Shown here: piece by piece, positions 7,859 through 31,021 of the stretch
Numbering within the stretch: position 1 is the first letter of the stretch
Layout of the letters: each line of letters opens with the position of its first letter
Assembly (NCBI GenBank): GCA_963692945.1
Contig: OY843585.1
Location: forward strand, 1,080,001-1,112,000
Direction: 5' to 3'
Origin: Bdellovibrionales bacterium
GTDB lineage: Bacteria > Bdellovibrionota > Bdellovibrionia > Bdellovibrionales > UBA1609
DNA: 32,000 nucleotides
Translations under genes and position numbers: made by a program
Notes under the pieces: generated by a model
What the model was told of the DNA's origin: nothing
Database searches by the model: none
The model's input: only the letters and a program-made list of their open reading frames with translations

Positions 7859-8353
7859 TTAAAATTTTGTTGGAAAAGATACAGATAATAAAATCCATAA
7901 ACCATGCATAGAAAAACTAAACATCAATCCACAAAATACAGCCACCACCCAAAACCATTCCTGTCGTTTTCTCAAAGAGAGTTTCTTTTTTGAAATTGAG
8001 AACACACTAAAAGTTGGTAAAAATAGAGATAATAAAATCCATAAACCATTTTTATAGAGTTGGACAAAGAATATTATTACAAGGAGGTATAGAAACAAAA
8101 GCAATACTTGCCGTGGTTTCATTACAAAAAAGTTTTTTCTGATGAGGTTTTTTGATTCTGGGAAAATAAATAACAAGCTAAAACTAAAAAAAAGTCCGCC
8201 CATGCCATAGGTGTATAAATAGCTCAACCAAGGGCTCTTCTCTCCAAGAATTTCAACTAAGTAACGAGGGTAGTAATAGACAAGTCCTATTACAAAAAAT
8301 AACAATAAAACAGCAAGGAAAAACAATTTATTTTGAATGTTTTTAGTTATCAT
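7859..8353 (-). CDS. Small integral membrane protein, possible symporter accessory subunit
   Basis: 164 aa with 4-5 hydrophobic segments. Internal repeat GLWILLS(L/V)(F/S)(L/F)PT(F/K). Lies 15 nt upstream of the symporter gene. Confidence 0.45.
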   Translation of the reverse strand: MITKNIQNKLFFLAVLLLFFVIGLVYYYPRYLVEILGEKSPWLSYLYTYGMGGLFFSFSLLFIFPESKNLIRKNFFVMKPRQVLLLFLYLLVIIFFVQLYKNGLWILLSLFLPTFSVFSISKKKLSLRKRQEWFWVVAVFCGLMFSFSMHGLWILLSVSFPTKF

Positions 8354-8453
8354 ATTTAACCTTTATCTAAATCATTTTTTTTAGTTTATTTGTAGTCTTT
8401 TTTAAGTCTTTTTAAAGACCTAACATCTCTTTTTTTCAAAAGCAATAGGATAT

Positions 8454-8747
8454 ACAAAACTCTAGTGTGTGAATTTTTATTTTCACGAGATTTGAAGAAC
8501 TTATCCATATGCGAAAAACCGTAGTTTTTCTCTAGGCATACCCTTTTTACTTTTTGAGGTTGAAGAGTGTCCCTCTTACGATGAAAACTCCTAAACTAAT
8601 TTGCGAAAACCAGTAGGTTTTCTCTAGTTCAAACATAAGCCTATTAAGCAACTCTTATTTTAACGAGATTTGAAGAGTGTCCCCTTTTACGATGAAAAGC
8701 TCGTTAAAATAAGAGTAGGAATTTACCTTAACTGAACGAGAGTTTTG
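8454..8747 (+). mobile_element. Mosaic palindromic repeat element (BIME/MITE-like) with imperfect 13-bp terminal inverted repeats
   Basis: Left end acaaaactctagtgtgtgaatttttattttcacgag (8454-8489) is identical to 21423-21458. Right end gaacgagagttttg (8734-8747) is its inverted copy with 1 mismatch. Core copies at 8560-8586 and 8668-8699. The second core is enclosed by a perfect 17-bp stem (8651-8667 / 8700-8716). Confidence 0.7.
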
Positions 8748-8748
8748 A

Positions 8749-9035
8749 TTTTACAGACTTAAGTACAAAGCACAAAGTTTAATAATTTATTAAACTTGAC
8801 TCTACCCCCCCCCATTTAAAACTAGTAATAATTAACCAAAGAAAGGAGAAAATTATGAAATATTTAATACTATTAAGTTTATTTTTTTGCATACAAGTTT
8901 TTGCAAAGAAACCAAATCTGTCGGACCTACCTGCTGTAGGTGTAGGTGGATATGGTGGTGCTGTGGTTACCAATAAGGGACTTCCAGGTGGTGGATATCC
9001 TGCAACTGGGAACGAGAGAGATATTAGAAAAGAAC
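8749..9035 (+). repeat. Direct repeat copy A: promoter, signal peptide and Gly-rich 5' cassette
   Basis: Near-identical to 13201-13465 outside the ~35-nt 5'UTR. One 21-bp in-frame indel (8967-8987). Confidence 0.9.
8796..8822 (+). promoter_or_regulatory. Candidate sigma70-type promoter with C9 tract in the spacer
   Basis: TTGACT (8796-8801), 15-nt spacer containing C9 (8805-8813), TAAAAC (8817-8822). RBS AAAGGAG lies 7 nt before the ATG at 8855. Confidence 0.5.
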
Positions 9036-9298
9036 AGTTACAAAGAAAGTATGATATTGATCAAGCCTATTTTCTAGGTCGCTTAGATACGGTAACAAAT
9101 AATTTGAAAAGTCTTAAAAAAGCAAATATAAAAAGATACCGTATGGGAAAAAATCTTTTTCAATATAGCATGAAGAACCCTTTTTCAAATAAGGAGATTG
9201 CTAAACGAGATTTCAAAATTCTTGAAAAAAGATACAGAAGTCTGAAGAAAAAGATAGGAACAATAGAAAAGATCTTAACACAAGGCCTGGTAAATTAA
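8855..9298 (+). CDS. Small secreted Gly-rich / Lys-rich helical protein, paralog A
   Basis: 147 aa. Signal peptide MKYLILLSLFFCIQVFA, GVGGYGGAV Gly-rich segment, basic C-terminal half. Paralog of 13307-13729. Confidence 0.75.
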   Translation: MKYLILLSLFFCIQVFAKKPNLSDLPAVGVGGYGGAVVTNKGLPGGGYPATGNERDIRKEQLQRKYDIDQAYFLGRLDTVTNNLKSLKKANIKRYRMGKNLFQYSMKNPFSNKEIAKRDFKILEKRYRSLKKKIGTIEKILTQGLVN

Positions 9299-9370
9299 AG
9301 AAATAAGCGTTAAGAAAAGAAGTAAACGTTAAGGTTGTAAAACTTTAACGGTTATTTTTACAAGACTTAA

Positions 9371-9580
9371 ACAAAACTCTAGTTCAGATCTAATACCCTT
9401 TTCTTTTTAGGAGATTTTCGTCGTAAGAGGGACACTCTTTTACAAAACTCTAGTGTTACCTTTCTTATTTTCTGACCTTTCATCGTAAGAGGGACACTCT
9501 TCAAGTTCAGAAAATAAGAAAGGGATTCATAGAGAAAACCTACTGGTTTTTTTTGCATGTGGTAATCTTTTCAAATCTCA
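9371..9580 (-). repeat. Mosaic palindromic repeat cluster, cores inverted relative to 8454-8747
   Basis: Reverse-complement cores at 9415-9441 (partial; lacks the TTGAA 5' end) and 9476-9506. The second is enclosed by a perfect 17-bp stem cctttcttattttctga / tcagaaaataagaaagg (9459-9475 / 9507-9523). acaaaactctagt motif at 9371-9383 and 9442-9454. Confidence 0.7.
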
Positions 9581-9614
9581 AAAAACAAAAAAGTCTTTCT
9601 AGGGAAAAATGGAG

Positions 9615-10187
9615 TTAACGAATTGGTTTTCTTGCTTTGGCTCCATGATCTTTAAGGATTTCAGCCACTTCTGTATGTTTTAAATTTTGTGCTTTTTCTA
9701 AAAGGAAAGGAATTCCGTTTTCATTTTTTTCGTTCACATCTGCTCCTGCTTCTATCAGAAGTTTTACGATTTTAGGAAAATTTTTAAAAACAGCCCAAAA
9801 AAGAGCTGAGTTTGGTCTTACTGATGATGATCCAAATGGATCACTTCTTGAATTAGGGTCATGACCTTTATCCAGAAGACATTTTACAGCTTCTGTGTCT
9901 CCAAATACGACAGATCTCGCAAGATCATCAGGTATTGTTAAAAGACGATCATTTTGTATCACCAACTCAACTGCTGGATCTATGGCAATAAATATACCAG
10001 ATTCAATAATGCGAGTTCGTTCTATCACCTTGCAACCTTTAACCATTTCATACTTTCTATTGGCTTCAAGATATTTTTTGGTTTCTTCTAGAGTCATGTT
10101 TTCATTTTTTTTCAGATTGTCATCTTCTTTACAAGAAAGTTGAAACAAGCTTCCAATAAGTATAAAAATAAATAAAATATATTTCAT
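9615..10187 (-). CDS. Ankyrin-repeat protein with signal peptide (possible lipoprotein), paralog 1
   Basis: 190 aa. N-terminus MKYILFIFILIGSLFQLSC. ANK-like segments (KIVKLLIEAGADVNEKNENG). Tandem paralog of 10341-10898. Confidence 0.8.
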   Translation of the reverse strand: MKYILFIFILIGSLFQLSCKEDDNLKKNENMTLEETKKYLEANRKYEMVKGCKVIERTRIIESGIFIAIDPAVELVIQNDRLLTIPDDLARSVVFGDTEAVKCLLDKGHDPNSRSDPFGSSSVRPNSALFWAVFKNFPKIVKLLIEAGADVNEKNENGIPFLLEKAQNLKHTEVAEILKDHGAKARKPIR

Positions 10188-10340
10188 AAGAATAACCTAT
10201 CAAATTTTGTAAAAGAAGTAAATTTGTTATCTGCTTTATGAAAAGGAATGTATTGCTCACTCTATACAAGTAGGAGTTTTTATCTATTTTGTATGAAGTT
10301 TTTTATTCAGTTGTAGATGTATTGTCATGAAAAAAATTAT

Positions 10341-10898
10341 TTAACGAATTGGTTTTTTTAGTGTAGCTCCATGAGCTTTAAGGATTTCTGCTATCTCTCC
10401 ATCAGAATGTATTAACAGAAAAGAATCTCCTTTATAATCTTTCTCATTTACGTTCGCTCCTGCTTCTGCCAGAAGCTTTACGATTTTAGGGTTATTGTTA
10501 GAAACAGCTAAATGAAGAGCGGAAGGTGGTACTCCTGCTGATCCAAATGGCTGACTTTTTACATTAGGGTCATGACCTTTATCCAGAAGACATTTTACAG
10601 CTTCTACATCTTCAAACGCAATAGACCTCACAAGGTCATCAGGTATTGTTAAGTCTTGTCTATTTTTTTCCAATAGCCTGCCTACTGAATCAAAGTCAAT
10701 AGATATACCAATCTGAATATTACGAGTTCGTTCTATCACCTTACAACCTTTAACCATTTCATATTTTCTTTCAGCTTCAAGAGTTCTTTTAGCTTCTTCT
10801 AGAGTCCTAAACCCTTCTATCCTTGGTATTTTATCTTCTTTACAAGAAAATTGAAATAAGCTTCCAATAAATATAAAAATAAATAAAATGTATTTCAT
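10341..10898 (-). CDS. Ankyrin-repeat protein with signal peptide (possible lipoprotein), paralog 2
   Basis: 185 aa. N-terminus MKYILFIFIFIGSLFQFSC. ANK motif KIVKLLAEAGANVNEKDYKG. Shares its C-terminal KPIR and long identical nucleotide runs with paralog 1. Confidence 0.8.
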   Translation of the reverse strand: MKYILFIFIFIGSLFQFSCKEDKIPRIEGFRTLEEAKRTLEAERKYEMVKGCKVIERTRNIQIGISIDFDSVGRLLEKNRQDLTIPDDLVRSIAFEDVEAVKCLLDKGHDPNVKSQPFGSAGVPPSALHLAVSNNNPKIVKLLAEAGANVNEKDYKGDSFLLIHSDGEIAEILKAHGATLKKPIR

Positions 10899-10964
10899 AA
10901 TGGTTTTAACCTATCAAAATTTGTAAAAGAAGTAAAAAATTTTTTCATAATCTATATCTTTTTT

Positions 10965-12839
10965 TTAAAAATACTTACATGCATTAGCTGTAGGTTCTTG
11001 ATGATTAGGGGTTTTTTTCTTTTCTTTTGTATTTAAGTTTTTAATTCTATTTTCAATGTATTTTTTCATATCCTTAAATCTATTTATTCCTTCAGCCTTA
11101 CTCATAAGTTCAATAGATTCTTTACTAGCTTGTAATAAAAAAGCTCTAGCTGAGACCATAATCTCTATAGATTTACTGTTTGTATATTTATTAATTGCTC
11201 CCAAAATAAGAAGTAAATTCTTACACTTACAAAATTTTTCTGGCTGAAGATTCGCTTTCTTTATAAATGGCTCAATTTGATCAGAGGAAATACATATAGA
11301 TTTTATCTGTCCTAATGGAATCTTTCTTTGTGATCCTTGAGTCACACAAGCCACTTCATTTTTATTAAATACACCACCACCACTATATCCAGGGACAATG
11401 TTAGTTTCCTTTAATTGACCATAGTCATTATTTAAGAAGATAACTTTTCCTGATTCAATAACACTTAAGTCACTTTTTAAATATTCCACAACACTTCCTT
11501 TTGGAACATTAGAGGTTAAAGGAATGTTTTTATTTAACTGAGCTTGAAACATTTTATTTATTTCTTCCTCTGTTACAAGACCTTTTTTTGCAAGTTGCTG
11601 AAGATATATTCTCTCTGAAGGTTCTAACAAATCTCCATTTGTTATAGGATTTCCTATAATTTCAAGAAGAGCTAAATCAAGATCACAATCATAATAGATA
11701 ATATTAGCTGATTTCTTTTTACCAGATGTTAATGTAATAGATACACTTTGACCTGTTTGAGCTTGTTTTTTAACACCTGTATTGTCACTTATTACATGAT
11801 AGTTTGTAATAATGTATTTTGATGAATACAAAAAGCCATTTCCAGTTCCTGCGATTGAATTGACCCTAACCCCTCTCAATATACTTGAAAAAGGAGATGT
11901 TTCAAGCAATTCTAAGAGCTCTTTTTTTAATTTTTCAACTTCTTCAGTTTCTCCTATGTCTTTCATAAAAATTATTTTTCGTTTAATTTCTTCTGCTCTG
12001 CTAAGCCAGATTTGTAAATTTGCTTTTGCAACATCACTTGGAGCTACTTGAGCAAAAAAGGCTTGTAGTTTTTTTGCCTTTGCTATTTGAATGTCTAAGT
12101 AAGGTTCAAATGTATTTTTAAATTCAATAAATTGTTCTTTAGTTATCTTAGGAGGGGGAATTAAGGAGGGATTTATACCATTTTCAGGGACACTTTGTGG
12201 GTTTCTCAGATCAGGTATAATTTGAGGTCTTGTCGGTGTTGTTGGAATTGGATCAGGAGAAGTCGGTGTTGTTGTAAGAGGAGGATCAGAAATAATTTGA
12301 GATGTAGGTGTCGTTATAGGAGGATCATAAGGATTAAGTCTATCTGATAAACCCTCTGTTGTTCTAAAAAAATCTGGTTGAATGCGATTTATTTCATCTT
12401 GATTTTCATTTATAATGCTAATGGCTTCGTCTTTATCTTTTGAACTTCCATATTTTAATACATCTTTATAGTATTTTAAACCCTCTCTTTTATCTTTTCT
12501 TACACCCTTAGCTCCATAAAAATACATATGAGCTATAAATGGAGCTGTTTCTTTTTTGTAACCCAAGTCATAGGACTCTTTAAAATCTTCTAAGGATTTC
12601 GCCATATTAGGTTTTATAAAAAGTTCATCTGTTCCTTGATGTTTCACTCCGTAGTAATGTATTTTTCCCATTTCAAAAAGATATTCTTTATCTTTTTTTG
12701 AGTAGGCTTTTTCTTTTATAAAATTATAGCTGTCAGGGAACATCACAAGATTTTCAGAAAAACTAAAAAAAGGGGAAAATAAAAGAAGAAGAAAAAGACT
12801 TTTAAAGGACATTAAAATAATATATCGGAAAATTATCAA
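10965..12839 (-). CDS. Secreted Sel1-like repeat, Pro/Thr linker, trypsin-like (S1) serine protease fusion
   Basis: Signal peptide, then Sel1-like repeats (IAHMYFYGAKGVRKDKREGLKYYKDV) and a PT-rich linker (PPITTPTSQ...TTPTRPQ). Catalytic triad context: TNYHV (His), DLDLALLEI (Asp), GYSGGGVF (Ser). The track start is TTG at 12839; ATG at 12812 (MSFKSLF...) is an alternative. Confidence 0.75.
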   Translation of the reverse strand: MIIFRYIILMSFKSLFLLLLFSPFFSFSENLVMFPDSYNFIKEKAYSKKDKEYLFEMGKIHYYGVKHQGTDELFIKPNMAKSLEDFKESYDLGYKKETAPFIAHMYFYGAKGVRKDKREGLKYYKDVLKYGSSKDKDEAISIINENQDEINRIQPDFFRTTEGLSDRLNPYDPPITTPTSQIISDPPLTTTPTSPDPIPTTPTRPQIIPDLRNPQSVPENGINPSLIPPPKITKEQFIEFKNTFEPYLDIQIAKAKKLQAFFAQVAPSDVAKANLQIWLSRAEEIKRKIIFMKDIGETEEVEKLKKELLELLETSPFSSILRGVRVNSIAGTGNGFLYSSKYIITNYHVISDNTGVKKQAQTGQSVSITLTSGKKKSANIIYYDCDLDLALLEIIGNPITNGDLLEPSERIYLQQLAKKGLVTEEEINKMFQAQLNKNIPLTSNVPKGSVVEYLKSDLSVIESGKVIFLNNDYGQLKETNIVPGYSGGGVFNKNEVACVTQGSQRKIPLGQIKSICISSDQIEPFIKKANLQPEKFCKCKNLLLILGAINKYTNSKSIEIMVSARAFLLQASKESIELMSKAEGINRFKDMKKYIENRIKNLNTKEKKKTPNHQEPTANACKYF

Positions 12840-12905
12840 AAAAACTTTAGTTGTTTATCTAGGAAAGTTTAAAAAAACTATCTTAGTGATTACTTTAGAT
12901 TTTAG

Positions 12906-12926
12906 ATCGTTCAGTTTTTGAACGAT
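12906..12926. promoter_or_regulatory. 8-bp perfect hairpin upstream of the protease gene
   Basis: atcgttca-gtttt-tgaacgat, 67 nt upstream of the 12839 start. Function unknown. Confidence 0.3.
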
Positions 12927-13200
12927 AATTTCATTTAAAAAATGAATAAAGTTCTAAAGAATATATAATTTCCTACAAAAACAAGTTCTAAAAAGGAGGA
13001 TGAAAATAAAAAAAGCCCTCTCAAAAAGAGGACTTTTTATTTATTAAGAAAGAGATGTGCTTACCTTATTTTTGGTCTGAATCTCTTGCCACTTCTTGCC
13101 AATGAGTGCTATTCTTTGCCTTTAAAAGTGTTGATTTACTTATGTTTTATTGAATTTACAACGCTCCAAATTTTTCCTACTCATTGAGGTTTTAAAAAAA

Positions 13201-13465
13201 TTTACAGACTTAAGTACAAAGCACAAAGCTTAATAATTTATTAAACTTGACTCTACCCCCCCCCATTTAAAATAAAATATAACATAATTAAACAAAGGAG
13301 GAAATTATGAAATATTTAATACTATTAAGTTTATTTTTTTGCATACAAGTTTTTGCAAAGAAACCAAGTTTGTCGGACCTACCTGCTGTAGGTGTAGGTG
13401 GATATGGTGGTGCTGTGGGTGGTGGATATCCTGGAACTGGGAACGAGAGAGATATTAGAGAAGAA
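13201..13465 (+). repeat. Direct repeat copy B: promoter, signal peptide and Gly-rich 5' cassette
   Basis: See 8749-9035. The two copies lie in direct orientation 4.45 kb apart. Confidence 0.9.
13247..13273 (+). promoter_or_regulatory. Candidate sigma70-type promoter with C9 tract in the spacer
   Basis: TTGACT (13247-13252), 15-nt spacer containing C9 (13256-13264), TAAAAT (13268-13273). RBS AAAGGAGG precedes the ATG at 13307. Confidence 0.5.
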
Positions 13466-13729
13466 ACTTTACAAAAATATTATTCTAGTCAAGTATTTGA
13501 TTGGGGGGGTCACGTAGAAACGGTAAGAAACAGTTTGAAAAATCTTAACAGAGCAAATGATAAAAAATACCGTCAGGGAAAAAAATTATTTGAATATAGA
13601 AAAGCGCAGAAATTTTCAAACCAGGCACTTGCTAGAAAAGATTTAAAAGATCTTAAAACAAGCCACTACAACGTGAAAAAAAATATAGCAAGAATAGAAG
13701 ATATGTTAAAACGACTAGATGCGCGTTAA
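13307..13729 (+). CDS. Small secreted Gly-rich / Lys-rich helical protein, paralog B
   Basis: 140 aa. The first ~38 aa are near-identical to paralog A, while the C-terminal half is diverged but alignable. Contains a G7 run at 13503-13509. Confidence 0.75.
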   Translation: MKYLILLSLFFCIQVFAKKPSLSDLPAVGVGGYGGAVGGGYPGTGNERDIREETLQKYYSSQVFDWGGHVETVRNSLKNLNRANDKKYRQGKKLFEYRKAQKFSNQALARKDLKDLKTSHYNVKKNIARIEDMLKRLDAR

Positions 13730-13770
13730 GTTTTTACAAGCTTAAGGTTTATTCTAACAAGATTCAGATA

Positions 13771-13798
13771 AGAGTTAAGGTTTTACAATCTTAACTCT
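13771..13798 (+). terminator. Candidate terminator hairpin of paralog B
   Basis: agagttaag-gttttacaat-cttaactct gives a 9-bp stem, but the downstream T tract is weak. Confidence 0.4.
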
Positions 13799-14090
13799 TA
13801 TTCTAACGAGATTTGAAGAGTGTCCCCTCTTACGATGAAAGCTCCTAAACTAATGTGCGAAAACCAGCAGGTTTTCTCTAGGAACACCCCTCCTTATTTT
13901 CTGAACTTGAAGAGTGTCCCTCTTACGATGAAAGCTCCTAAACTAATGTGCGAAAACCAGCAGGTTTTCTCTAGTTCAAACATAAGCCTATTAAGTAACT
14001 CTTATTTTAACGAGATTTGAAGAGCGTCCCTCTTGCGATGAAAAGCTCGTTAAAATAAGAGTAGGAAATATTTTTTTGAACGAGAGTTTC
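13798..14090 (+). repeat. Mosaic palindromic repeat array (three cores, one 95-bp direct duplication)
   Basis: Cores at 13811-13841, 13906-13934 and 14015-14045. The ~70-nt module 13811-13881 is repeated at 13906-13975. The third core is enclosed by a 17-bp stem (13998-14014 / 14046-14062). A right-end-like gaacgagagtttc motif lies at about 14078-14090. Confidence 0.75.
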
Positions 14091-14125
14091 AAAAAAAAAG
14101 CGACGAAGAAAACTCCGTCGCTTTT
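14091..14125 (-). terminator. Rho-independent terminator of the 23S-5S operon
   Basis: On the minus strand: GCGACG-gagttttctt-CGTCGC followed by T9. Confidence 0.75.
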
Positions 14126-14135
14126 TCAATATAAA

Positions 14136-14250
14136 GTTGGCATCTTGCTACTCTCCCTTAAGGCAAACTTAAAGTACCATCGCCGTTGGTGGGCTTAACT
14201 GCTGTGTTCGGAATGGGAACAGGTGTTACACCACCGCTATTGACACCAAC
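14136..14250 (-). rRNA. rrf: 5S ribosomal RNA
   Basis: The reverse complement contains CCGAACACAGCAGTTAAGC, GCGATGGTACT and GGGAGAGTAGCAAGATGCCAAC. Helix I ends pair (GTTGGTGTC / GATGCCAAC). About 115 nt. Confidence 0.9.
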
Positions 14251-14361
14251 AATCTGTCAATCTTAAATATTTTGCTCTATAATTTACAATATAATTATAG
14301 AAACAAACAAATGTATATCAATTCAAATCATTCTTAGCTTTTATCAATTGAGCATTTTCCA

Positions 14362-17328
<2,967 letters not shown>

Positions 17329-17500
17329 TTTCTAAATAACGTCTCTTGATAAAATTTTTATGCCAAGAATGATTTGAATTGATCAAACCATTTTTTTCCG
17401 CAAAAAATGATAACAAATTGTTATAATTGTTTGTTTCTTTTATATAATTTACACTATTCAATTTTCAAAGAGCAAAAATCTTATGAGATTTTGAAAGAGA

Positions 17501-17826: not shown

Positions 17827-18456
17827 ATGAGACCAGTAACTTTATCTCTTTTTTTGTTTATTTTATTCATTCCAGCGACAACCCTATCTGCTGAAAAAGT
17901 TAAAAAACAAGAATCTTTTTTACAAAAAGTGGAAAACTTTTTTGGATTATCTTCCACTAAAAAAACAAAGGATCCAAAAAAGATAAAAGAATCTGAGACA
18001 ACAGCTATTTCCTATACAGATAAAAAAGATGTTGTTGATTCCAACTACTATAGAAAAATCAGTTCTAAAGCTATCAAAACTAAACAGGATAATCTTATCA
18101 ATGCCATGTCTAACTCTTGTGATCCTAATGAAAGTCCCTTTGAAAGATTAAAAACTTTTAAATCCAATCTCATAAAATTAAGAAAATATTTAAAAGCCAT
18201 TAGCACTTCACCCAAAGTTGATCTTGATCAACAGATGCAATCTAAAGATATTTATTTACAAATCAATGAGGAAAATGTTCCTTTCTTAAACATTATAGAT
18301 GAAGAAGGTGCAACTATAAAAGACAAGGTGTTGGCTTTAGAAAAATTTTTCTTATCTTATCAAGGTTACTATATTAAAGATAAAGAAAGTGATTTAGATG
18401 ACTGGGCAAAAACAATCGTTAAGGGAATAACTTGTATTGATGGCCAATCTCTTTAA
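17827..18456 (+). CDS. Hypothetical secreted protein
   Basis: 209 aa. Strong RBS AGGAGG and signal peptide MRPVTLSLFLFILFIPATTLSA. No family recognised. Confidence 0.7.
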   Translation: MRPVTLSLFLFILFIPATTLSAEKVKKQESFLQKVENFFGLSSTKKTKDPKKIKESETTAISYTDKKDVVDSNYYRKISSKAIKTKQDNLINAMSNSCDPNESPFERLKTFKSNLIKLRKYLKAISTSPKVDLDQQMQSKDIYLQINEENVPFLNIIDEEGATIKDKVLALEKFFLSYQGYYIKDKESDLDDWAKTIVKGITCIDGQSL

Positions 18457-18474
18457 GACAATACAAGTGATTTT

Positions 18475-20085
18475 ATGAAAAAAATACAAAATACTTTATT
18501 ACTGCTTTTATTCTCTAACACCCTTGCTTATTCTGAAGTCAAAATTCCCTACGAACAATGCAATTGGACAAATAAAGACTATACGGAACACATCATAGAA
18601 AATTCTAAAAAAGTCTATTACACCGAAGAGGAGACTGAAGCTTGTATAGATTGTTTGTATCCATCTCCAAAAGAACAATCTCGCTTTGATAGTTTTATGA
18701 GATCCTTTGTCAATGCGGATAAATCAAACCAAATTCCAGAAATTTGTTTTTTCGCTAGTTCTATAAGATCTACGGAAAAAAAAGGAGGGAAGAGTTCTAG
18801 AAATTACTATTACTGTAAAGAACCTACAAGTAAACGCCCATCAAGATCCATGACTGTTTTTAACCCTGACAAAAAAAGAAACCAAAAAAAATGGGCAAGA
18901 AGAACTTGTCTTTCTAAAAATTATATGGATATGACAATCCAATCTTTCAATTACATGACAAATTGTTTTGGCATCTCAGATTTAAAAGAAAAAAAGGAAC
19001 TGTTTACAATTTTCAATCATGAATCTTCTTTTATTCTAAACAATAGAAGTGAAACAGATGCAAGATGCTATGGCCAGTTAACAGAAGATGCTATTGATCA
19101 AATGGATAAGATGATTTATAGTAAAGAGAAAAGCCATGAACAATATACCGTTTTCTATAAACAAGCTTTAAAAAACTGTCCTGATCTCAAAGAAAAATTA
19201 ATTATCCCTAAAATGATTATAGAAGAAACATCGGCAAAACCATCTACTACTAAACTTGGAAAGTTACAGGACAAAACAGACCCAACTTGTAGAGTGAGCC
19301 AACACCCTCACACCTGTTTTTTCTATTCTATATTTCACTTTGTATCAAATAAGGTTAGGTTTGAAAGAAATGTCAATTTTGTAGCCAACGAAATACCTTA
19401 TAAAGAGGATGAGAAAGTGGTTACTAACAGAGACGCCTTAATCAAAGATTTCAAACTACCTATTACATTGACAAAGATTCTTCGTGTAAAAGGAGTTTTT
19501 ACAAAAAAAAATGGCAAGAGAGTTAAAGCAGATTGGATATTTCAAGATGATCATGCACTGTATAAAAGTATAAAAAATCTAACTTATGATCCTCAACAAA
19601 TAAAAGTTCAAAAAATAGATCTCTATAGAGATAGAGATATGGATAAAATCAATACATTCACTACACATACGGCTCATAACGGAGGGGCTTCTGTTATAGT
19701 TAAGCATTTTGAAGAATTTATAAGAAAGCAAAAAGAACAAATTTCTGTTGCCTCTTTTTGCGATAGATTAAAATCTTCTAAACTTAAAATTTGTAAACAT
19801 AGAAAACAAATTATGAATTACCAACCTTTAAGTTTTAAAGATTTTTCAACCCCTTTTTCTGATCATCTAAAAGCAAATTACGGAAAAGCAGGCACCAGCT
19901 CAAAAAGAAGATTAGAAGTAGGGAATTTCTATAAACACTTACTAAAGAATAAAGATTATCTAAAAAATAAAGATAACTTCTTAGCCAGCCAACTCACAAG
20001 ATTACACAAAAACAATCCCAATGTTTCTCCTGAAGATATAGAAGCTTTTGTAAAAGAAAGCAAAAAACAATGTTCTGATTTTTAA
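18475..20085 (+). CDS. Secreted Cys-rich protein, possible divergent lytic transglycosylase (SLT-like) domain
   Basis: 536 aa with a signal peptide. IFNHESSFILNNRSETDARCYGQLTEDAI resembles SLT motifs ES..(about 15 aa)..GLMQ. AHNGG resembles AYNxG but lies about 200 aa further on, unusually far. Confidence 0.65.
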   Translation: MKKIQNTLLLLLFSNTLAYSEVKIPYEQCNWTNKDYTEHIIENSKKVYYTEEETEACIDCLYPSPKEQSRFDSFMRSFVNADKSNQIPEICFFASSIRSTEKKGGKSSRNYYYCKEPTSKRPSRSMTVFNPDKKRNQKKWARRTCLSKNYMDMTIQSFNYMTNCFGISDLKEKKELFTIFNHESSFILNNRSETDARCYGQLTEDAIDQMDKMIYSKEKSHEQYTVFYKQALKNCPDLKEKLIIPKMIIEETSAKPSTTKLGKLQDKTDPTCRVSQHPHTCFFYSIFHFVSNKVRFERNVNFVANEIPYKEDEKVVTNRDALIKDFKLPITLTKILRVKGVFTKKNGKRVKADWIFQDDHALYKSIKNLTYDPQQIKVQKIDLYRDRDMDKINTFTTHTAHNGGASVIVKHFEEFIRKQKEQISVASFCDRLKSSKLKICKHRKQIMNYQPLSFKDFSTPFSDHLKANYGKAGTSSKRRLEVGNFYKHLLKNKDYLKNKDNFLASQLTRLHKNNPNVSPEDIEAFVKESKKQCSDF

Positions 20086-21093: not shown

Positions 21094-21420
21094 ATGATAA
21101 GTGTATCTCCAGCAGCAGCAGAGCATATCGATTACCTCAAAGGTAGAGATAAAATAATAGATAATAAACCTCTTCGCATTTCTATAAAAGAAGGGGGTTG
21201 TTCTGGTTTTTCTTACAAATTAGATTTTGACAATAAAAAATTAGAAACGGATAAAGAATTTACTTCCAATGGTGTTCATTTGGTGATTGAAGCAAAAAGT
21301 CTCCTCTATCTTATGGGAATGGTTTTAGATTTTGATGGTGGACTCAATGGAAAAGGGTTTGTGTTTTCAAACCCCAATGCCAAAGACACTTGTGGTTGTG
21401 GCTTCTCCTTTGGAGTGTAA
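21094..21420 (+). CDS. erpA: Iron-sulfur cluster insertion protein (HesB/IscA/ErpA family)
   Basis: 108 aa. GGCSGFSY and C-terminal CGCGFSF cysteine motifs. Confidence 0.88.
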   Translation: MISVSPAAAEHIDYLKGRDKIIDNKPLRISIKEGGCSGFSYKLDFDNKKLETDKEFTSNGVHLVIEAKSLLYLMGMVLDFDGGLNGKGFVFSNPNAKDTCGCGFSFGV

Positions 21421-21612
21421 TTACAAAACTCTAGTGTGTGAATTTTTATTTTCACGAGCTTTTCATCGTAAAAGGGGACACTCTTCAAATCTCGTGAAAA
21501 ATAAAAGTTTTAACATAGAGAAAAACTTCTGTTTTTCGCATATGGGTAAGATCTTCAAATCTCGTTAAAATAAGAGTAGAAAAATATTTAAGTAATTGAA
21601 CTAGAGTTTTGT
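21421..21612. mobile_element. MITE-like member of the mosaic repeat family with perfect 13-bp TIRs
   Basis: TIRs acaaaactctagt (21423-21435) and actagagttttgt (21600-21612). Internal inverted core at 21459-21490 is enclosed by a stem (21443-21458 / 21491-21507). The element fills the whole gap between the erpA stop and the ferredoxin stop. Confidence 0.7.
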
Positions 21613-21613
21613 T

Positions 21614-22045
21614 TTAAGATTTATTCAAATTTTTTTTCATATCTTTAATATCTTCATCATCTTCAATAAGAATATCACTTTTAGATTGAGCTTCAGCAGC
21701 ATTTTTCTTTTGAGTTCGCTCTAAAAATTGTTGAGAAATCTTTCCTTGTTGAGCTCGCTCTTCTTGTTCTTTTAAATCAATAGTGACATTGCCAAAACAA
21801 TAAAGCTGGCAAGCCAATCGTCTTTGATCTACATAGTGTCCCTGACCAATCAATTTAAGTTCTTTAGTTGTTGGTGGAAAAACATTCATATCACCTTCTT
21901 TTAAAAATACGCGACAATCTCCACAAGTGCACATACCATTACAAGAAGATTGAATCTTTATTCCATTCTCCCTTGCCAATTCCAAAAGATTTTTATCTGA
22001 ATCAACTTCTAATTCTATATTTTGTGGTAAAAACTTAATCTTCAT
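21614..22045 (-). CDS. [2Fe-2S] ferredoxin (adrenodoxin/Fdx-type) with acidic/basic C-terminal tail
   Basis: Cys pattern C-x5-C-x2-C ... C (SSCNGMCTCGDC ... RLACQ). 143 aa. Confidence 0.8.
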   Translation of the reverse strand: MKIKFLPQNIELEVDSDKNLLELARENGIKIQSSCNGMCTCGDCRVFLKEGDMNVFPPTTKELKLIGQGHYVDQRRLACQLYCFGNVTIDLKEQEERAQQGKISQQFLERTQKKNAAEAQSKSDILIEDDEDIKDMKKNLNKS

Positions 22046-26160: not shown

Positions 26161-29010
26161 ATGAAAGCAACACAAAAACCCAGTTTCACTAAAAGACACC
26201 TAGGACCAGACAAGGAAGAACAGTCTCAAATCCTAAAATCTTTAAAAGTCTCTTCTCTAGATGAACTCACTCAATCTGCTATTCCCTCTGAAATTTATGG
26301 AAAAGACACCTTTCAGCTAGGACCTCCTTTATCCGAACAAGCTTTGTTGAAAAAAGCCAAACTATTGGGAGAGAAAAACAAACTTTTCAAAAATTATATT
26401 GGAATGGGCTACAATCCTTCTATCACACCAGGAGTTATCACTCGCAACATTCTAGAAAACCCTGTGTGGTACACATCTTATACACCTTATCAATCCGAAC
26501 TGGCTCAAGGACGACTTGAAGCTCTTTTAAATTTTCAAACTGTCATCAAAGATTTAACAGGAATGGAAATAGCCAATGCCTCTCTACTGGATGAAGGAAC
26601 GGCTGCTGCAGAAGCTCTTGTTTTAACAAAAAATGTCAATGAACAAAAACCTAAAGCTCATAAATTTTTTGTAGATCAATATTGTTTTCCTCAAACTCTA
26701 GATGTTTTAAAAACAAGGTCTGAATCTCTTGGTTGGGAAATGGAAGTAGGAGATTTTAAAACTTTCAAAGGAGGTGAAGAGTATTTTTCTGTTATCATTC
26801 AATATCCAAATAGCCTTGGCTCTATTGAAGACATCCAAGCTTTTCTCAAAAAAATGGAAGAACAAAATATTCTTTCTATAGTTATTACAGATCCTCTAAG
26901 TTTAACACTGCTCACTCCACCAGGAGAGATGGGAGCTCATGTTGTTGTAGGCAGTTCTCAAAGATTAGGCTTGGCTCTTTTTTTTGGTGGCCCTCATGCA
27001 GCTTATTTTGCCACAAAAGAAAAATATGTTCATTCTATGCCCGGAAGAATTGTAGGTCTTTCAAAAGATCGCCACAACAATCCCGCTCTAAGACTTGCTC
27101 TTCAAGTTAGAGAACAACATATAAAAAGAGAAAGAGCGACAAGTAATATTTGCACAGCTCAAGTGCTTCTAGCCATTGCAGCCAGCTTCTATGCCGTCTA
27201 TCATGGACCTAAAGGTTTAAAAAAAATATCCAGTAAAATTAATGATTTAACAAAAAAACTTTATGAAATACTTTCATCATTTGAAGGAGAAATAAAAAAC
27301 TCCAGTTTCTTTGATACCATTTACTGGGAACTGGATTCCGAAGAAAAAGCACAAGAAATACAAAAACTTTTTTGGAAGGAAGAAATCAATATTGGAAGAC
27401 CTAGCTTAACAAGTCTTTCTTGGACACTCAACGAAACAACTGAAGAAGAAGATTTGCTAAAAATAAAAGAGATTTTAAAAAATCAGTCTGTTGTTCTTTC
27501 TAACAAAAAAACGAGAAAAGAAGCCATAGGAATACCGCAAAAATTACAAAGAATGAGTGATTACTTAAAGCACCCTACTTTTAACAACTACCACTCTGAA
27601 ACAAAAATTCTTAGGTATATACACAAACTTCAAAATAAAGAATTATCACTGACACACTCTATGATTCCCCTAGGTTCTTGCACTATGAAATTAAATTCTG
27701 TAACAGAAATGACAGCTCTTTCTTGGCCTTGTTTTTCAGATTTACATCCTTTTGCCCCTACAGATCAAAGCCAAGGTTATCGTGAGTTGATTAAAGAGTT
27801 GGAACAACAACTGTGTGAGTTGACAGGATTTCATAGTTTTTCTTTCCAACCCAATGCTGGATCTCAAGGAGAGTATGCTGGTCTTTTAGCTATTAAAACC
27901 TATCATCAAAAAAAGAATCAAAGTCATAGAAATATCTGTTTAATACCCTCTTCTGCTCATGGAACCAATCCCGCTAGTGCTATAATGGCAGGATTAAAAG
28001 TTGTCCCTGTCGCTTGCACAAAAGAAGGACCTATTGATCAAGAGGATTTACAAAACAAACTGAAAATTTATGGAGATAAATTATCTTGTATAATGATAAC
28101 CTACCCTTCAACTTATGGTGTTTTTGAAGAAGGCATAACAGAAATTTGTTCTAAAATTCATAACTCTGGAGGACTTGTCTATCTTGACGGAGCCAATATG
28201 AATGCTCTTCTTGGTCTTTGTAAATTAAGAAGTATTGGATTTGATGTTTGCCATTTAAATTTACATAAAACTTTTTGTATTCCTCACGGCGGAGGAGGTC
28301 CTGGAGTAGGCCCTGTAGGTGTTTGTGAAGAATTAAAAGATTTTTTACCAAACCATTGGACTTTTAAAAAAGATTCTGCACTTGGAGCCATTAGTTCTTC
28401 TCCTTATGGAAGTGCAGGTATTTTATCTATTTCTTGGGCTTATATTTCTTTAATGTCTCACGAAGGTTTAAAACAATCGGCTCAAGTGGCTATAGCCAAT
28501 GCAAATTACATTGCAGAACAATTACAACCTTTCTATCGCGTTCTCTTTAAAGGAAAAAACAATCGGGTGGCTCATGAATGCATTGTGGATTTTAGAAAAT
28601 TCAAAAATACAGCAGGTGTTACTATTGATGATATTTCCAAACGTTTAATAGATTATGGCTTTCATGCTCCTACAATGTCTTGGCCTGTTCCTGGAACTTT
28701 AATGATAGAACCTACAGAAAGTGAATCCAAAGAGGAGATGGATAAGTTTTGTTCTGCACTTATCTCTATTAAAAAAGAAATTGAAGAGACTGAAAAAAAT
28801 CTAAAGTTTTCTTTATTGAAAAATGCTCCTCATACTTTAGAAGATGCTCTTAAAGAAAAATGGCCTTTTTCTTACTCTAAAGAACAAGCGTTTTACCCTT
28901 TAAGCTGGATTAAGGAACGTAAGTTTTGGCCAGCCGTTTCTCGTATTGAAAATGCTTACGGAGATATTCATCTTGTTTGTTCATGTCCTTCTATGAAAGA
29001 TTTTGAATAA
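26161..29010 (+). CDS. gcvP: Glycine dehydrogenase (decarboxylating), single-chain P protein
   Basis: 949 aa. N-terminal FTKRHLGPD and PLP-lysine region HLNLHKTFCIPHGGGGPG. Confidence 0.93.
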   Translation: MKATQKPSFTKRHLGPDKEEQSQILKSLKVSSLDELTQSAIPSEIYGKDTFQLGPPLSEQALLKKAKLLGEKNKLFKNYIGMGYNPSITPGVITRNILENPVWYTSYTPYQSELAQGRLEALLNFQTVIKDLTGMEIANASLLDEGTAAAEALVLTKNVNEQKPKAHKFFVDQYCFPQTLDVLKTRSESLGWEMEVGDFKTFKGGEEYFSVIIQYPNSLGSIEDIQAFLKKMEEQNILSIVITDPLSLTLLTPPGEMGAHVVVGSSQRLGLALFFGGPHAAYFATKEKYVHSMPGRIVGLSKDRHNNPALRLALQVREQHIKRERATSNICTAQVLLAIAASFYAVYHGPKGLKKISSKINDLTKKLYEILSSFEGEIKNSSFFDTIYWELDSEEKAQEIQKLFWKEEINIGRPSLTSLSWTLNETTEEEDLLKIKEILKNQSVVLSNKKTRKEAIGIPQKLQRMSDYLKHPTFNNYHSETKILRYIHKLQNKELSLTHSMIPLGSCTMKLNSVTEMTALSWPCFSDLHPFAPTDQSQGYRELIKELEQQLCELTGFHSFSFQPNAGSQGEYAGLLAIKTYHQKKNQSHRNICLIPSSAHGTNPASAIMAGLKVVPVACTKEGPIDQEDLQNKLKIYGDKLSCIMITYPSTYGVFEEGITEICSKIHNSGGLVYLDGANMNALLGLCKLRSIGFDVCHLNLHKTFCIPHGGGGPGVGPVGVCEELKDFLPNHWTFKKDSALGAISSSPYGSAGILSISWAYISLMSHEGLKQSAQVAIANANYIAEQLQPFYRVLFKGKNNRVAHECIVDFRKFKNTAGVTIDDISKRLIDYGFHAPTMSWPVPGTLMIEPTESESKEEMDKFCSALISIKKEIEETEKNLKFSLLKNAPHTLEDALKEKWPFSYSKEQAFYPLSWIKERKFWPAVSRIENAYGDIHLVCSCPSMKDFE

Positions 29011-29250
29011 ACCGTATTTTATAAACACTTACTTTTTATTTTTTCTGAACAATATTTTTGAATACGGTAACTAGCGATTTGAAGATTTTGAATAAACCGT
29101 ATTTTATAAACACTTACTTTTTATTTTTTCTGAACAATATTTTTGAATACGGTAACTAGCGATTTGAAGATTTTGAATAAACCGTATTTATAAACACTTA
29201 CTTTTTATTTTTTCTGAACAATATTTTTGAATACGGTAACTAGCGATTTG
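28997..29250. repeat. 85-bp tandem repeat x3 spanning the 3' ends of both convergent genes
   Basis: Units at 28997-29081, 29082-29166 and 29167-29250 (84 bp). Each carries aagattttgaataa (gcvP end plus stop) and the reverse complement of the last 21 codons plus stop of the 29188-30582 gene. Confidence 0.92.
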
Positions 29251-30582
29251 AAAAATAGATTTTTCTTTTCCAAGATTATGATTCAAATATTTATTTAAGT
29301 TCAAAGGTTCTTTTGTATTTGATGCCACTGTTCTAGTGGAATCATCATCTCCTCCATAAGAATCATCAGAATCTGAATCTCTAAAACCACCACCACCAGA
29401 AGAACCAGTAAATCCTCCATTAGACCAGTATTCAGGTTCAGAGTAACCGCCATAATCTCCATCATTATCACCAAAATCGGGTCCACCACCTGGAGGACCT
29501 CCACCACCTCCACCACCTGGAGGAGCTCCACCTGAAGGAGTTTCCTCTCCACCGGCAAGGCTAGAAAAACCATTGTTTTTATATTTGCTATCCGAGTTAC
29601 CATCATTAGAAAAATCATCACCTATATCATTAAATGGTGGATTGGAACCAAATTTACTATCATCTGGAGTGTCTGGTGTGTTCCCAGCCAATAATGCATT
29701 ACCAGATGGTGCAGAAGGTAATGATGGCGACGAGGGTTGATTAGGAGGAGTGTATCCAGCGGCTGCTTGTTGGCAGGCTTGAAGCTGTAAATTTCTCATA
29801 GAAGCTTCTAATTGTTTTGGTTCTATACCATTTAAAATTTTATCACAAACTACAAAATCCTCTATACCTCTTCCCCTCGTAAATGTTGTTGATCTATTCT
29901 TGAGAGTTCCTTCTTTATATTTTTTATCAATTTCTTCAACTATTTTTTCAATTTTATCCTCATTGCCTTCTATTTTTTTACATTTATCTATAACATTTGT
30001 TGCTATTTCTCTTAAATCAACCAATGAAGAATCTAATAGTGCTGTTGCTTTTTCTTCTGGAAGATTTTGAATAAAATCTTCTATAAGTGTTATTAAAAAT
30101 TCTCTATAATGTGCTTCACAAGTTTTTGTACATTTATCCATACTGTCAGAACAGCTACTTGTTTGTATGGTTTTAAAGGCATCTGTTAAAGATCTAGGAA
30201 TTTGAGAAAGATTACTATATTTACAGGCCTCATAAGGATCTCCTGAAACAGAACCTCTCACTTGATAATAGGTTTCTAATAATGGAAGACCAACTTGAGC
30301 TAAACTATCTTTTACATTATCTCTAATCCTTTTAGAACATTTTCCCTGATTTATGCAACAATTATTGGTTTCTTCTTTAGCCTCATTACATACAACATTC
30401 AAACTACGACTATCTTTTTGATCTATATAGGAGTAAGATTTTAATTTAGCAACAAATGTAGTAACATTATCATTACCAGCAGTAAGATTAGTAGGAAAAG
30501 ATTTACATCCATAGTTATCTAAATTAATCCCTGCATTAGATAAAAAAGGAAACAAAAATATTAAAATATAAAATCTAAACAT
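29188..30582 (-). CDS. Secreted protein: Cys-rich N-terminal domain plus Gly/Pro/Asp/Ser low-complexity tail
   Basis: 464 aa with signal peptide MFRFYILIFLFPFLSNA. About 20 Cys lie in the first 270 aa. Tail includes PPGGGGGGGPPGGGPDFGDNDGDYGGY. No family recognised. Confidence 0.7.
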   Translation of the reverse strand: MFRFYILIFLFPFLSNAGINLDNYGCKSFPTNLTAGNDNVTTFVAKLKSYSYIDQKDSRSLNVVCNEAKEETNNCCINQGKCSKRIRDNVKDSLAQVGLPLLETYYQVRGSVSGDPYEACKYSNLSQIPRSLTDAFKTIQTSSCSDSMDKCTKTCEAHYREFLITLIEDFIQNLPEEKATALLDSSLVDLREIATNVIDKCKKIEGNEDKIEKIVEEIDKKYKEGTLKNRSTTFTRGRGIEDFVVCDKILNGIEPKQLEASMRNLQLQACQQAAAGYTPPNQPSSPSLPSAPSGNALLAGNTPDTPDDSKFGSNPPFNDIGDDFSNDGNSDSKYKNNGFSSLAGGEETPSGGAPPGGGGGGGPPGGGPDFGDNDGDYGGYSEPEYWSNGGFTGSSGGGGFRDSDSDDSYGGDDDSTRTVASNTKEPLNLNKYLNHNLGKEKSIFQIASYRIQKYCSEKIKSKCL

Positions 30583-30768: not shown

Positions 30769-30785
30769 TGTCTCAATTTGAGACA
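30769..30785 (-). terminator. Possible fusA-side terminator hairpin
   Basis: tgtctca-att-tgagaca gives a 7-bp stem. On the minus strand a T7 run follows about 10 nt later, which is a weak arrangement. Confidence 0.25.
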
Positions 30786-30833
30786 CTTATTTGATAAAAT
30801 AAATTTTTGAAATATTAACTTAATAAAATCTTT

Positions 30834-31021
30834 TTTCTATTCCTAAGTGCAATAAGATATTTAAAGTAAAAACTTCTATTTTTCTGTTCCTAAGTGCAAT
30901 AAGATATTTAAAGTAAAAATTTCTGTTTTTCTGTTCCTAAATGCAGCAAAATATTTAAAGTAAAAATTTCTTTTTTTCTATTCCTAAGTTCAACGAGATA
31001 TTTAAAGTAAAAACTTCTGCT
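30834..31021. repeat. 47-bp tandem repeat x4; the last unit contains the fusA stop and final codons
   Basis: Units at 30834-30880, 30881-30927, 30928-30974 and 30975-31021, with cctaag at a 47-bp period. Units 1-3 are diverged copies of ttaaagtaaaaacttct..., the reverse complement of the fusA 3' end. Confidence 0.88.

Follow-up and report, generated by a model that had tools for sequence, protein, structure and literature searches.

Mosaic palindromic repeats with a BOX-resembling modular architecture in the intergenic DNA of a Bdellovibrionota-like bacterium

Results

The locus and its composite repeats

We analysed a 32,000-nt window of contig OY843585.1 (positions 1,080,001 to 1,112,000; assembly GCA_963692945.1) from a Bdellovibrionales bacterium, whose intergenic DNA holds a family of mosaic palindromic repeats; all coordinates below are those of the window unless another locus is named. 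The window contains housekeeping genes, several ankyrin-repeat genes and a 23S-5S rRNA pair on the minus strand. Four of its intergenic gaps carry composite elements of ~190–330 bp, designated A to D, and the short cores highlighted by the initial annotation are parts of these elements. The interval 8454–8747 to which that annotation was attached is indeed one cluster, but it represents one of four clusters and not the whole family. The elements add up to 1,048 nt (27% of the intergenic DNA in the window), are exclusively intergenic and occur in both orientations relative to the flanking genes. Their GC content is 28–37%, compared with 27% for the intergenic DNA, 33% for the coding DNA and ~31% for the window as a whole. 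The only open reading frame (ORF) within any element is a 66-codon frame generated by the repeats, and elsewhere in the window only the terminator hairpins of two small paralogous genes resemble the family.

Read in the direction of the core, the modules follow an order that is common to all four clusters: the end motif ACAAAACTCTAGT; a short spacer; a T-rich arm with the end ACGAG; the junction GAGATTTGAAGA, continued either by the rest of the core and CTCCTAAACTAAT or by the shorter WCTTAYCCATATGC; a 7-bp hairpin (H2) with TCTAG; one or two further arm-core units; and finally a closing arm, then a spacer and the end motif in inverted form. The elements are thus bounded by a terminal inverted repeat (ACAAAACTCTAGT...ACTAGAGTTTTGT), and the arms just inside each end are T-rich and of the form (C)TTATTTT+NNNGAG. 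Seven copies of the end motif were found, each at an element boundary or junction, those at the right ends of A and C being degenerate. Two subtypes can be distinguished: the alpha end CTCTAGTGTGTGAA is joined to arm S2 (CACGAG), and the beta end CTCTAGTTCA to arm S1 (AACGAG). The number and combination of modules differ among copies: core units number one to three, and H2 may be present or not. The related core-less module that had been noted initially is present in three copies (8487–8512 and, on the reverse strand, 9555–9579 and 21538–21563) and reads as an internal-deletion derivative of the core and pre-H2 sequence, in which ~29 nt would have been lost.

A conserved core restricted to one stretch of the window

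The core TTGAAGAGTGTCCCTCTTACGATGAAA has five matches with no more than three mismatches in the window, as against none expected from 100 shuffles. A profile built from the core copies, allowing a 1-nt indel, was run with nhmmer on the 32-kb window and on other loci, and identified exactly eight cores in the window with E-values from 6e-12 to 2e-9: seven full-length copies (8560, 8668, 13811, 13907 and 14017 on the forward strand; 9478 and 21461 on the reverse strand) and one 5′-truncated copy (9416, reverse strand). The family is therefore as real as the initial annotation had claimed and its eight listed positions were right to within 1–2 nt, but its total of eight full-length copies plus a truncated one was one too many. 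In 1.24 Mb of other loci, the same profile found nothing better than E=0.65.

The core is ~27–29 nt long; three copies are identical across 27 nt and the rest differ at a few positions, so that the core, which forms the loop of the enclosed units, is more conserved than the stems around it. Within any one element the cores all share one direction, and three of the seven full-length cores have no enclosing stem. All eight cores found in the 32 kb lie inside 13 kb; extrapolation to the genome is unsafe. The predicted inner stem of the core retains a conserved G-U pair, and in the core of unit U4 a T>C change (14025) together with an A>G change (14035) turns a U-A pair of this predicted 3-bp stem into C-G. 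The inner hairpin AAGAG/CTYTT is, in two copies, paired only via G-U, and this on the core-forward strand.

The core appears to be confined to this lineage, as far as the collections searched extend: an exact 25-nt core gave no match in 185,579 genomes or in the JGI metagenomes, a degenerate, indel-tolerant core pattern gave none in metagenomes and viral contigs, and BLASTN with cluster A gave none against plasmids and phages. A literature search for the element sequences themselves also yielded none.

Anatomy of the four elements

Element A (8453–8749, plus strand, 297 bp) lies between the divergent genes 7859–8353 (minus) and 8855–9298 (plus) and comprises, in order, an end motif, arm S2, a core-less module with the hairpin variant H2′, arm S4 with a core and H2, the enclosed unit U1 and a degenerate end motif. 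Its alpha end motif ACAAAACTCTAGTG (8454–8467) runs into arm S2 GTGTGAATTTTTATTTTCACGAG (8467–8489), and the 41 nt starting at 8453 are 98% identical to 21422–21462. The core-less module, composed of GAGATTTGAAGA and ACTTATCCATATGC, occupies 8487–8530 together with H2′ (GAAAAAC cgta GTTTTTC). The first core copy (8560–8586), which is not stem-enclosed, is preceded by the degenerate arm S4 (8538–8559) and followed by CTCCTAAACTAAT (8588–8600) and hairpin H2 (8605–8622). U1 (8651–8716) holds the second core (8668–8695) within a perfect 17-bp stem, ACTCTTATTTTAACGAG / CTCGTTAAAATAAGAGT, and a degenerate beta-type motif on the minus strand, TCAAAACTCTCGTTCA (8733–8748), closes the element.

Cluster B, on the minus strand, consists of two parts. 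B-left (9371–9441, 71 bp) is a fragment that adjoins the end of B-right and contains a beta end motif (9371–9384), arm S4b (9393–9413) and the 5′-truncated core (9416–9442). B-right (9442–9593, 152 bp) is located between the convergent genes 8855–9298 (plus) and 9615–10187 (minus), beyond the terminator hairpin (9327–9350) of the former. It is made up of an alpha end motif (9442–9455), the enclosed unit U3 (arms 9459–9475 and 9507–9523, core 9478–9504), H2 (9534–9551), a core-less module (9555–9579) and a degenerate arm. The end motif directly abuts a core that lacks its first bases (9440–9442), which shows nesting or truncation.

Element C (13766–14095, plus strand, 330 bp) is situated between the gene 13307–13729 (plus), one of two ORFan paralogs described below, and the 5S rRNA terminator (14100–14121). 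A hairpin at its left (13772–13797) is fused to arm S1v, and three cores follow (13811, 13907 and 14017), the first and second of them succeeded by H2 hairpins (13859–13876 and 13952–13969). The third core belongs to the enclosed unit U4 (13998–14062), whose perfect 17-bp stem is the same as that of U1, and a degenerate end motif lies at 14077–14090. The tandem units of this element create the spurious ORF (13820–14020).

Element D (21421–21613, minus strand, 193 bp) fills the whole gap between the stop codons of two convergent genes, an IscA-like gene (21094–21420, plus) and a ferredoxin gene (21614–22045, minus), starting 2 nt past the first stop codon and ending 1 nt before the second. Its perfect 13-bp terminal inverted repeat (21423–21435 / 21600–21612) closes the entire element in the predicted fold (z = -5.4). 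Inside are the enclosed unit U2 (21441–21508, core 21461–21488), H2′ (21520–21537), a core-less module (21538–21563) and arm S1 (21561–21577).

Stem pairing is kept while stem sequence varies

Four cores are enclosed by outer stems, as the initial annotation had stated, although its claim that each of three stem classes is paired with its exact complement holds for two classes only. Perfect 17-bp stems were found in the AACGAG class (U1, 8651–8667/8700–8716; U4, 13998–14014/14046–14062) and in the CTGA class (U3), whereas the CACGAG-class unit U2 is perfect for 10 bp and is then slipped by one T. The enclosed units fold far better than shuffled sequences on both strands, as RNA and as DNA (z from -3.4 to -7.6). 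When the four units were aligned, the 17 pairs of the outer helix comprised 6 that are invariant and 11 that are changed on both sides, with no one-sided change; 95.6% of the cells were paired, none of 500 shuffles reached the observed pattern, and sliding the 3′ partner along reduced pairing to 44–55%. Structure is thus preserved while sequence varies, as had been proposed. All outer-stem pairs are Watson-Crick, with no G-U, and pairing is therefore equal on both strands and in duplex-derived cruciforms.

Both described variants of the second hairpin are real (GAAAACC/GGTTTTC, n=4; GAAAAAC/GTTTTTC, n=2) and they differ by one covarying pair, but GAAAAAC is confined to core-less modules and was not seen behind any full core, where it had also been placed. 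This single pair represents one event that 38 of 500 shuffles reach, which is not significant alone. Independent compensatory events are few altogether: about three stem classes, one H2 pair and one pair inside the core.

Modules were exchanged at a shared junction

A junction 14-mer, ACGAGATTTGAAGA, located at 8485–8498 on the plus strand and also at 8663, 13806 and 14010 and, in reverse, at 21482 and 21552, marks every passage from arm S1 or S2 into a core or core-less module (6/6 junctions). The alpha/S2 end of element A is next to the core-less module, and its core unit is closed by the beta/S1 end; element D shows the opposite arrangement, with alpha/S2 on the core side and beta/S1 on the core-less side. 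The point of the alpha/beta swap falls exactly at the 14-mer, and its position within this common sequence indicates that modules recombined there. The parts of D are 85–98% identical to parts of A and differ from A in their arrangement. A fourth arm class, S4, occurs once before a forward core (8538–8559) and once before a reverse core (9393–9413), a split that would result from exchange between the inverted cores that flank gene 8855–9298. The proposal of a genuine mosaic repeat family is borne out.

The repeats are missing from the nearest sequenced relatives

Two relatives, L001 (GCA_029782575.1, contig JARPSI010007112.1) and L002 (ERZ26695812), are collinear with the window. Their tyrosyl-tRNA synthetases (TyrRS) are 84–85% identical to that of the window, with only 49% identity in a neighbouring protein. 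The named TyrRS matches, at no more than 65% identity, come from metagenome-assembled genomes (MAGs) of Bdellovibrionales, Oligoflexia and Pseudobdellovibrionaceae, and a TyrRS-profile scan of genome contigs for further close relatives gave a best identity of 49% (a Pseudobdellovibrionaceae MAG). L001, the closest relative retrieved, is on contig number 7112 of a large multi-contig assembly and may be a symbiont or contaminant within a eukaryote genome project.

Profile, BLAST and repeat searches of L001 and L002 revealed no core, no end motif and no analogous palindromic family. The orthologous spacers of the relatives are shorter and cannot be aligned with those of the window. The IscA/ferredoxin gap measures 193 bp here, all of it element, compared with 127 and 80 bp of unrelated sequence in the relatives, and the gap from the 5S rRNA to the next gene is ~230 bp in L002 (its positions 18270–18498) compared with 5.8 kb here. 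This 5.8-kb island (8354–14134), not present in L002, is bounded by the 5S rRNA and by the ortholog of a 108-aa membrane protein of L002, and contains three of the four clusters. It also contains two ORFan secreted-protein paralogs (8855–9298 and 13307–13729) with near-identical upstream modules, tandem ankyrin paralogs (9615–10187 and 10341–10898) and a gene for a trypsin-like protease (10965–12839). No homolog of the ORFan pair was found elsewhere among 5.8 billion proteins.

Elements A and C have in common a 143-nt segment with 92% identity, which indicates that copy number is partly due to plain segmental duplication. Element D, on the other hand, lies 7.3 kb outside the island between two conserved housekeeping genes, which shows true dispersal. 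Distant copies are near-identical, with 98% identity over 41 nt and 96% over 55 nt between the copies at 8.5 kb and 21.4 kb. The earlier view that the family is not simply decayed duplication was upheld by D, ~7 kb beyond the island, where the relatives have unrelated, shorter spacers.

Several further features of the island were recorded. The membrane-protein ortholog at its edge (7859–8353) has an internal insertion of ~56 aa relative to L002 (18498–18824) that repeats GLWILLS and has the appearance of an internal duplication. Upstream of both ORFan paralogs is a 72-nt module (8750–8821 and 13201–13272; 99% identity between the two) that includes a C9 homopolymer (8805–8813 and 13256–13264) just downstream of a TTGACT hexamer; as part of a putative promoter spacer, such a tract would permit phase variation of the slipped-strand type. 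The terminator hairpins associated with the ORFan genes (GTTAAGnTTTTACAAnCTTAAC; 9327–9350, 13723–13747 and 13772–13797) are followed by a T-rich tail, TTATTYTAACRAGATT, which shares homology with S1, the 5′ arm found in the repeat units. To judge from this likeness, the arms may derive from terminator tails, or the terminators from arms.

Other repeats and the rRNA genes of the window

The 23S-5S pair (14135–17335) has no adjacent 16S or tRNA gene, indicating an unlinked rRNA operon. L002 likewise has 23S and 5S genes with no 16S gene in the locus, and its 23S gene is flanked by a 22-nt inverted repeat that is probably a processing stem; the L001 sequence runs from the 23S start to the contig end. 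An 85-nt tandem repeat in three copies (28997–29250; 100%, 100% and 85% identical to the reference copy) spans the 3′ ends of a convergent pair formed by a glycine dehydrogenase gene (26161–29010) and a 464-aa Gly-rich ORF (29188–30582), and a different tandem repeat, of 77 nt in two copies, is present at the 3′ end of the homologous ORF in L002 (4173–4314). A 47-nt tandem repeat in five copies (30785–31066) occupies the gap beside the 3′ end of the EF-G gene; the junctions of its units form AAAAACTTCTRTTTTTC, which resembles the H2′ hairpin of element D (E ~0.07), a likeness that may be due to chance.

Discussion

On balance, the elements probably constitute a lineage-specific, non-autonomous and modular repeat, similar to MITEs (miniature inverted-repeat transposable elements) and resembling BOX, that spreads and is reshuffled at the DNA level. 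Their anatomy, their absence from the relatives and the exchange of modules were shown; the sequence family is new, and its kind, the small selfish or regulatory repeats of many bacteria, is already known. This reading is supported by the single layout of all four clusters, by their occurrence in either orientation and by the closed 13-bp terminal repeat of D. The near-identity of distant copies, and the lack of any copy in the orthologous spacers of the relatives, speak for recent spread.

As to the mode of mobilisation and any effect at the RNA level, we infer the following. The elements would have entered intergenic gaps after the split from the nearest sequenced relatives, and their copies would have been amplified in part by local segmental duplication and reshuffled by recombination or template switching at the junctions ACGAGATTTGAAGA and TCTAG. 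The stem arms would be inverted copies of each other that were made or corrected as a palindrome, which is a property of the DNA. Where an element is transcribed as a 3′ trailer, its long hairpins are probably passive barriers to read-through or to exonucleases, and D would be the clearest case of such a by-product, since no other DNA separates the two convergent stop codons there.

A number of observations weigh against this interpretation. None of the seven end motifs shows a consistent direct repeat that would represent a target-site duplication, and the exact ends were drawn without a close empty site. The 32-kb window encodes no transposase of any kind, so that mobility is deduced rather than seen. 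A conserved loop on variable stems is unusual for a MITE and more typical of a hairpin site that is read by a protein. Moreover, the elements are not richer in AT than their intergenic surroundings (28–37% versus 27% GC), the copies are all found within 13 kb, the 5.8-kb island holds three of the four clusters together with other duplications, and the 143-nt segment shared by A and C means that part of the copies arose by segmental duplication.

According to the criteria compiled for MITEs and BOX elements, these are small but variable in size, carry inverted repeats at their termini, are heavily base-paired and have a modular A-B(n)-C build (PMC3049150). The present elements conform to each of these points, and they depart from MITEs in not being AT-rich relative to the genome. 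Architecturally, the closest known system is BOX of Streptococcus pneumoniae and S. suis, which consists of boxA-boxB(n)-boxC mosaics of 67–637 bp (PMC3049150); no sequence relationship is claimed, and homology is unlikely given the Bdellovibrionota-like host lineage. Like BOX, the present repeats are intergenic composites of a few modules whose order is fixed, with terminal modules that pair, and in both the copy number of the internal module varies, resulting in a wide size range (67–637 bp versus 193–330 bp). Alternative end modules are also common to the two, boxA/C and boxE/F in S. suis (PMC3049150) corresponding to the alpha and beta ends here, as are spurious ORFs created by tandem units and the lack of a transposase of their own. 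However, in the present family the internal unit alone forms a long hairpin, whose 29-nt loop is conserved while its stems vary, and the target-site duplications reported for BOX (PMC3049150), whose hosts are of an unrelated lineage, are not visible here. The Correia/NEMIS, RUP and ERIC elements and other MITEs are similarly shorter than 350 bp, non-coding and intergenic (PMC3184786, PMC10969869), and they share with the present elements terminal inverted repeats, extensive predicted structure and copies that differ between related genomes. They differ in that our elements are strongly modular inside and not AT-richer than background, and Correia has terminal repeats of 26 bp (PMC3184786, PMC10969869) as compared with 13 bp, and no detectable duplication, here.

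Two alternatives retain a small share of the probability, about equal for each. According to the first, the hairpins resemble the REP (repetitive extragenic palindromic) sequences, the bacterial interspersed mosaic elements (BIMEs), REPINs or PATEs, and serve as single-stranded DNA substrates of an IS200/IS605-type Y1 (HUH) transposase such as RAYT, encoded elsewhere, that recognises the conserved core displayed on a structurally defined stem. REP and BIME families have high copy numbers, with more than 100 per genome, and the RAYT (PF01797) gene is flanked by inverted REPs. The present elements agree with such families in having a conserved loop on stems that vary and yet remain complementary, in the occurrence of units in both orientations and in the lack of a visible target-site duplication, which is consistent with Y1 transposition. 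Extragenic palindromes in mosaics with conserved linkers are likewise typical of BIMEs and REPINs (PMC2817692, PMC3116915), and our units are clustered in the same BIME-like manner (PMC2817692); these families, too, are species- or lineage-specific, and REP stems are known to retain their palindromy through complementary changes (PMC2817692). Nevertheless, REPs are imperfect palindromes of 20–40 nt with a G+C-rich consensus (PMC2817692, PMC3184786), whereas the outer stems here are AT-rich and 17 bp long with a loop of ~30 nt, and H2 has 7 bp with two or three G-C pairs. A conserved GT(A/G)G head is not found 5′ of any stem; the 3′ edge of the S1′ arm and some of the H2 loops are the only places with GTAG, other loops having AGCA or AGAA. 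The cores within an element point the same way and do not alternate regularly, the composite elements have conventional terminal inverted repeats, and no PF01797 protein or other Y1 transposase is encoded in the window. The initial proposal of a REP/RAYT-type substrate is accordingly not favoured.

The second of the two, judged equally improbable, is that the elements are selected cis-acting RNAs, whose transcribed hairpins terminate or insulate transcription, make 3′ ends more stable or give rise to a small RNA. Convergent genes flank three of the four clusters, D is the sole sequence available to end two convergent transcripts, and the folds are strong. The features of the core's inner stem, namely the conserved G-U, the U-A to C-G double change and the two hairpins that are paired only by G-U on the core-forward strand, also point in this direction. 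Against this, no stem is followed by a U-tract and a consensus terminator scan found none inside the elements, while canonical terminators that belong to the flanking genes and to the 5S rRNA lie outside the elements at clusters B and C (9327–9350 and 14100–14121); the terminator role suggested initially therefore finds no support. The genes on either side of element A diverge, so that it is upstream of both; relative to the paralogous genes upstream of them, B is in antisense and C in sense orientation; and the three unenclosed full cores have no stem. The elements are missing at the same sites in the relatives, which shows that the neighbouring genes do not need them. No Rfam family was matched either: with Rfam 15 only the 23S and 5S rRNA pass the gathering score in the window, and at E up to 10 only generic long-hairpin miRNA models appear, which we read as noise.

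The pairing of the outer stems does not decide in favour of an RNA. From what is established about palindrome mutagenesis, inverted copies that are made or corrected as palindromes, through terminal repeats, foldback duplication or quasi-palindrome correction, yield complementary changes, and the stem complementarity can thus be put down to the DNA itself, with no need to invoke selection on a transcript. Stem variation does not discriminate between an RNA-level and a DNA-level cause. The initial inference from preserved structure to a function as RNA or single-stranded DNA consequently does not follow, given the exclusively Watson-Crick pairs, the two orientations, the three of seven full cores without a stem, the swapping of stem classes between element ends at the common 14-nt junction and the small number of events.

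Rather less probable still is that the repeats are local duplication debris of one unstable island, with neither mobility nor function. The absence of the 8354–14134 island from L002, the presence in it of three of the four clusters, of tandem ankyrin paralogs and of two ORFan paralogs whose upstream modules are near-identical, and the 143 nt that A and C share at 92% would all fit such an origin. It is contradicted by D, which lies 7.3 kb outside the island in a housekeeping context, with perfect terminal repeats and sharp bounds 1–2 nt from the stop codons, and whose parts match those of A at 85–98% in a different arrangement, as well as by the ordered, bounded architecture of all copies.

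It is very doubtful that the units are sites of site-specific recombination (integron attC-, shufflon- or invertase-like) that move or invert small host-interaction genes. Hairpins with variable stems and conserved unpaired bases do recall attC sites such as the Vibrio cholerae repeats, which are likewise structured imperfect palindromes whose fold is kept while the sequence varies and which are also associated with small genes of unknown function. In addition, the inverted cores at 8560 and 9416 (reverse) flank an ORFan secreted-protein gene together with its promoter region, and the related S4 arms are split between these two cores as an inversion would produce. However, the R''/R' consensus (RYYYAAC/GTTRRRY) is not matched in any stem class: the S1 arms, with TTTTAAC/GTTAAAA, have one mismatch each, and neither S2 nor S3 agrees with it. 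The units do not share one orientation, several of them are arrayed in tandem with neither gene nor cassette in between, the window encodes no integrase or invertase, and homologous recombination between 25-nt inverted repeats would explain the S4 split equally well. Marginally less improbable is the narrower idea that the core could be a hairpin-displayed recognition or cleavage site of a single-stranded DNA recombinase of the HUH/Y1 or integron-integrase type that is encoded elsewhere. If this were true, the units would invert, duplicate and shuffle the ORFan secreted-protein, ankyrin and protease genes of the island, and the S4 split (8560/9416) would be the scar of an inversion across the ORFan gene.

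Other identities were rejected outright: a CRISPR array, since the "spacers" are themselves repeated; a small protein gene, since the 66-codon frame lacks a ribosome-binding site and arises from the periodicity of 93 nt; an IHF site in the core, which has no match to WATCAANNNNTTR; and a promoter in the core, where the spacing of TTGAAG..TACGAT is 11 nt.

The non-autonomous modular repeat that we favour is a finding of modest interest, and would raise a new mechanistic question only if the core proved to be a recombinase site. It also carries a caution: DNA palindromes are expected to produce perfect "compensatory" variation in the stems of repeat copies, and such variation is alone no proof of a functional RNA. 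For the organism, it adds a well-delimited modular repeat family to a poorly known, ankyrin-rich Bdellovibrionota-like lineage with a small, AT-rich genome (a contig of ~1.56 Mb), whose relatives occur in metagenomes and in one large assembly of many contigs. To judge from the ankyrin genes, its lifestyle may be host-associated; a literature search found no described endosymbiotic Bdellovibrionota genome of relevance. This reduced genome still bears recently active repeat DNA, amounting to 27% of the intergenic DNA of the window, and the repeats mark a 5.8-kb variable island of secreted and ankyrin proteins, providing markers for strain typing and for the detection of rearrangements.

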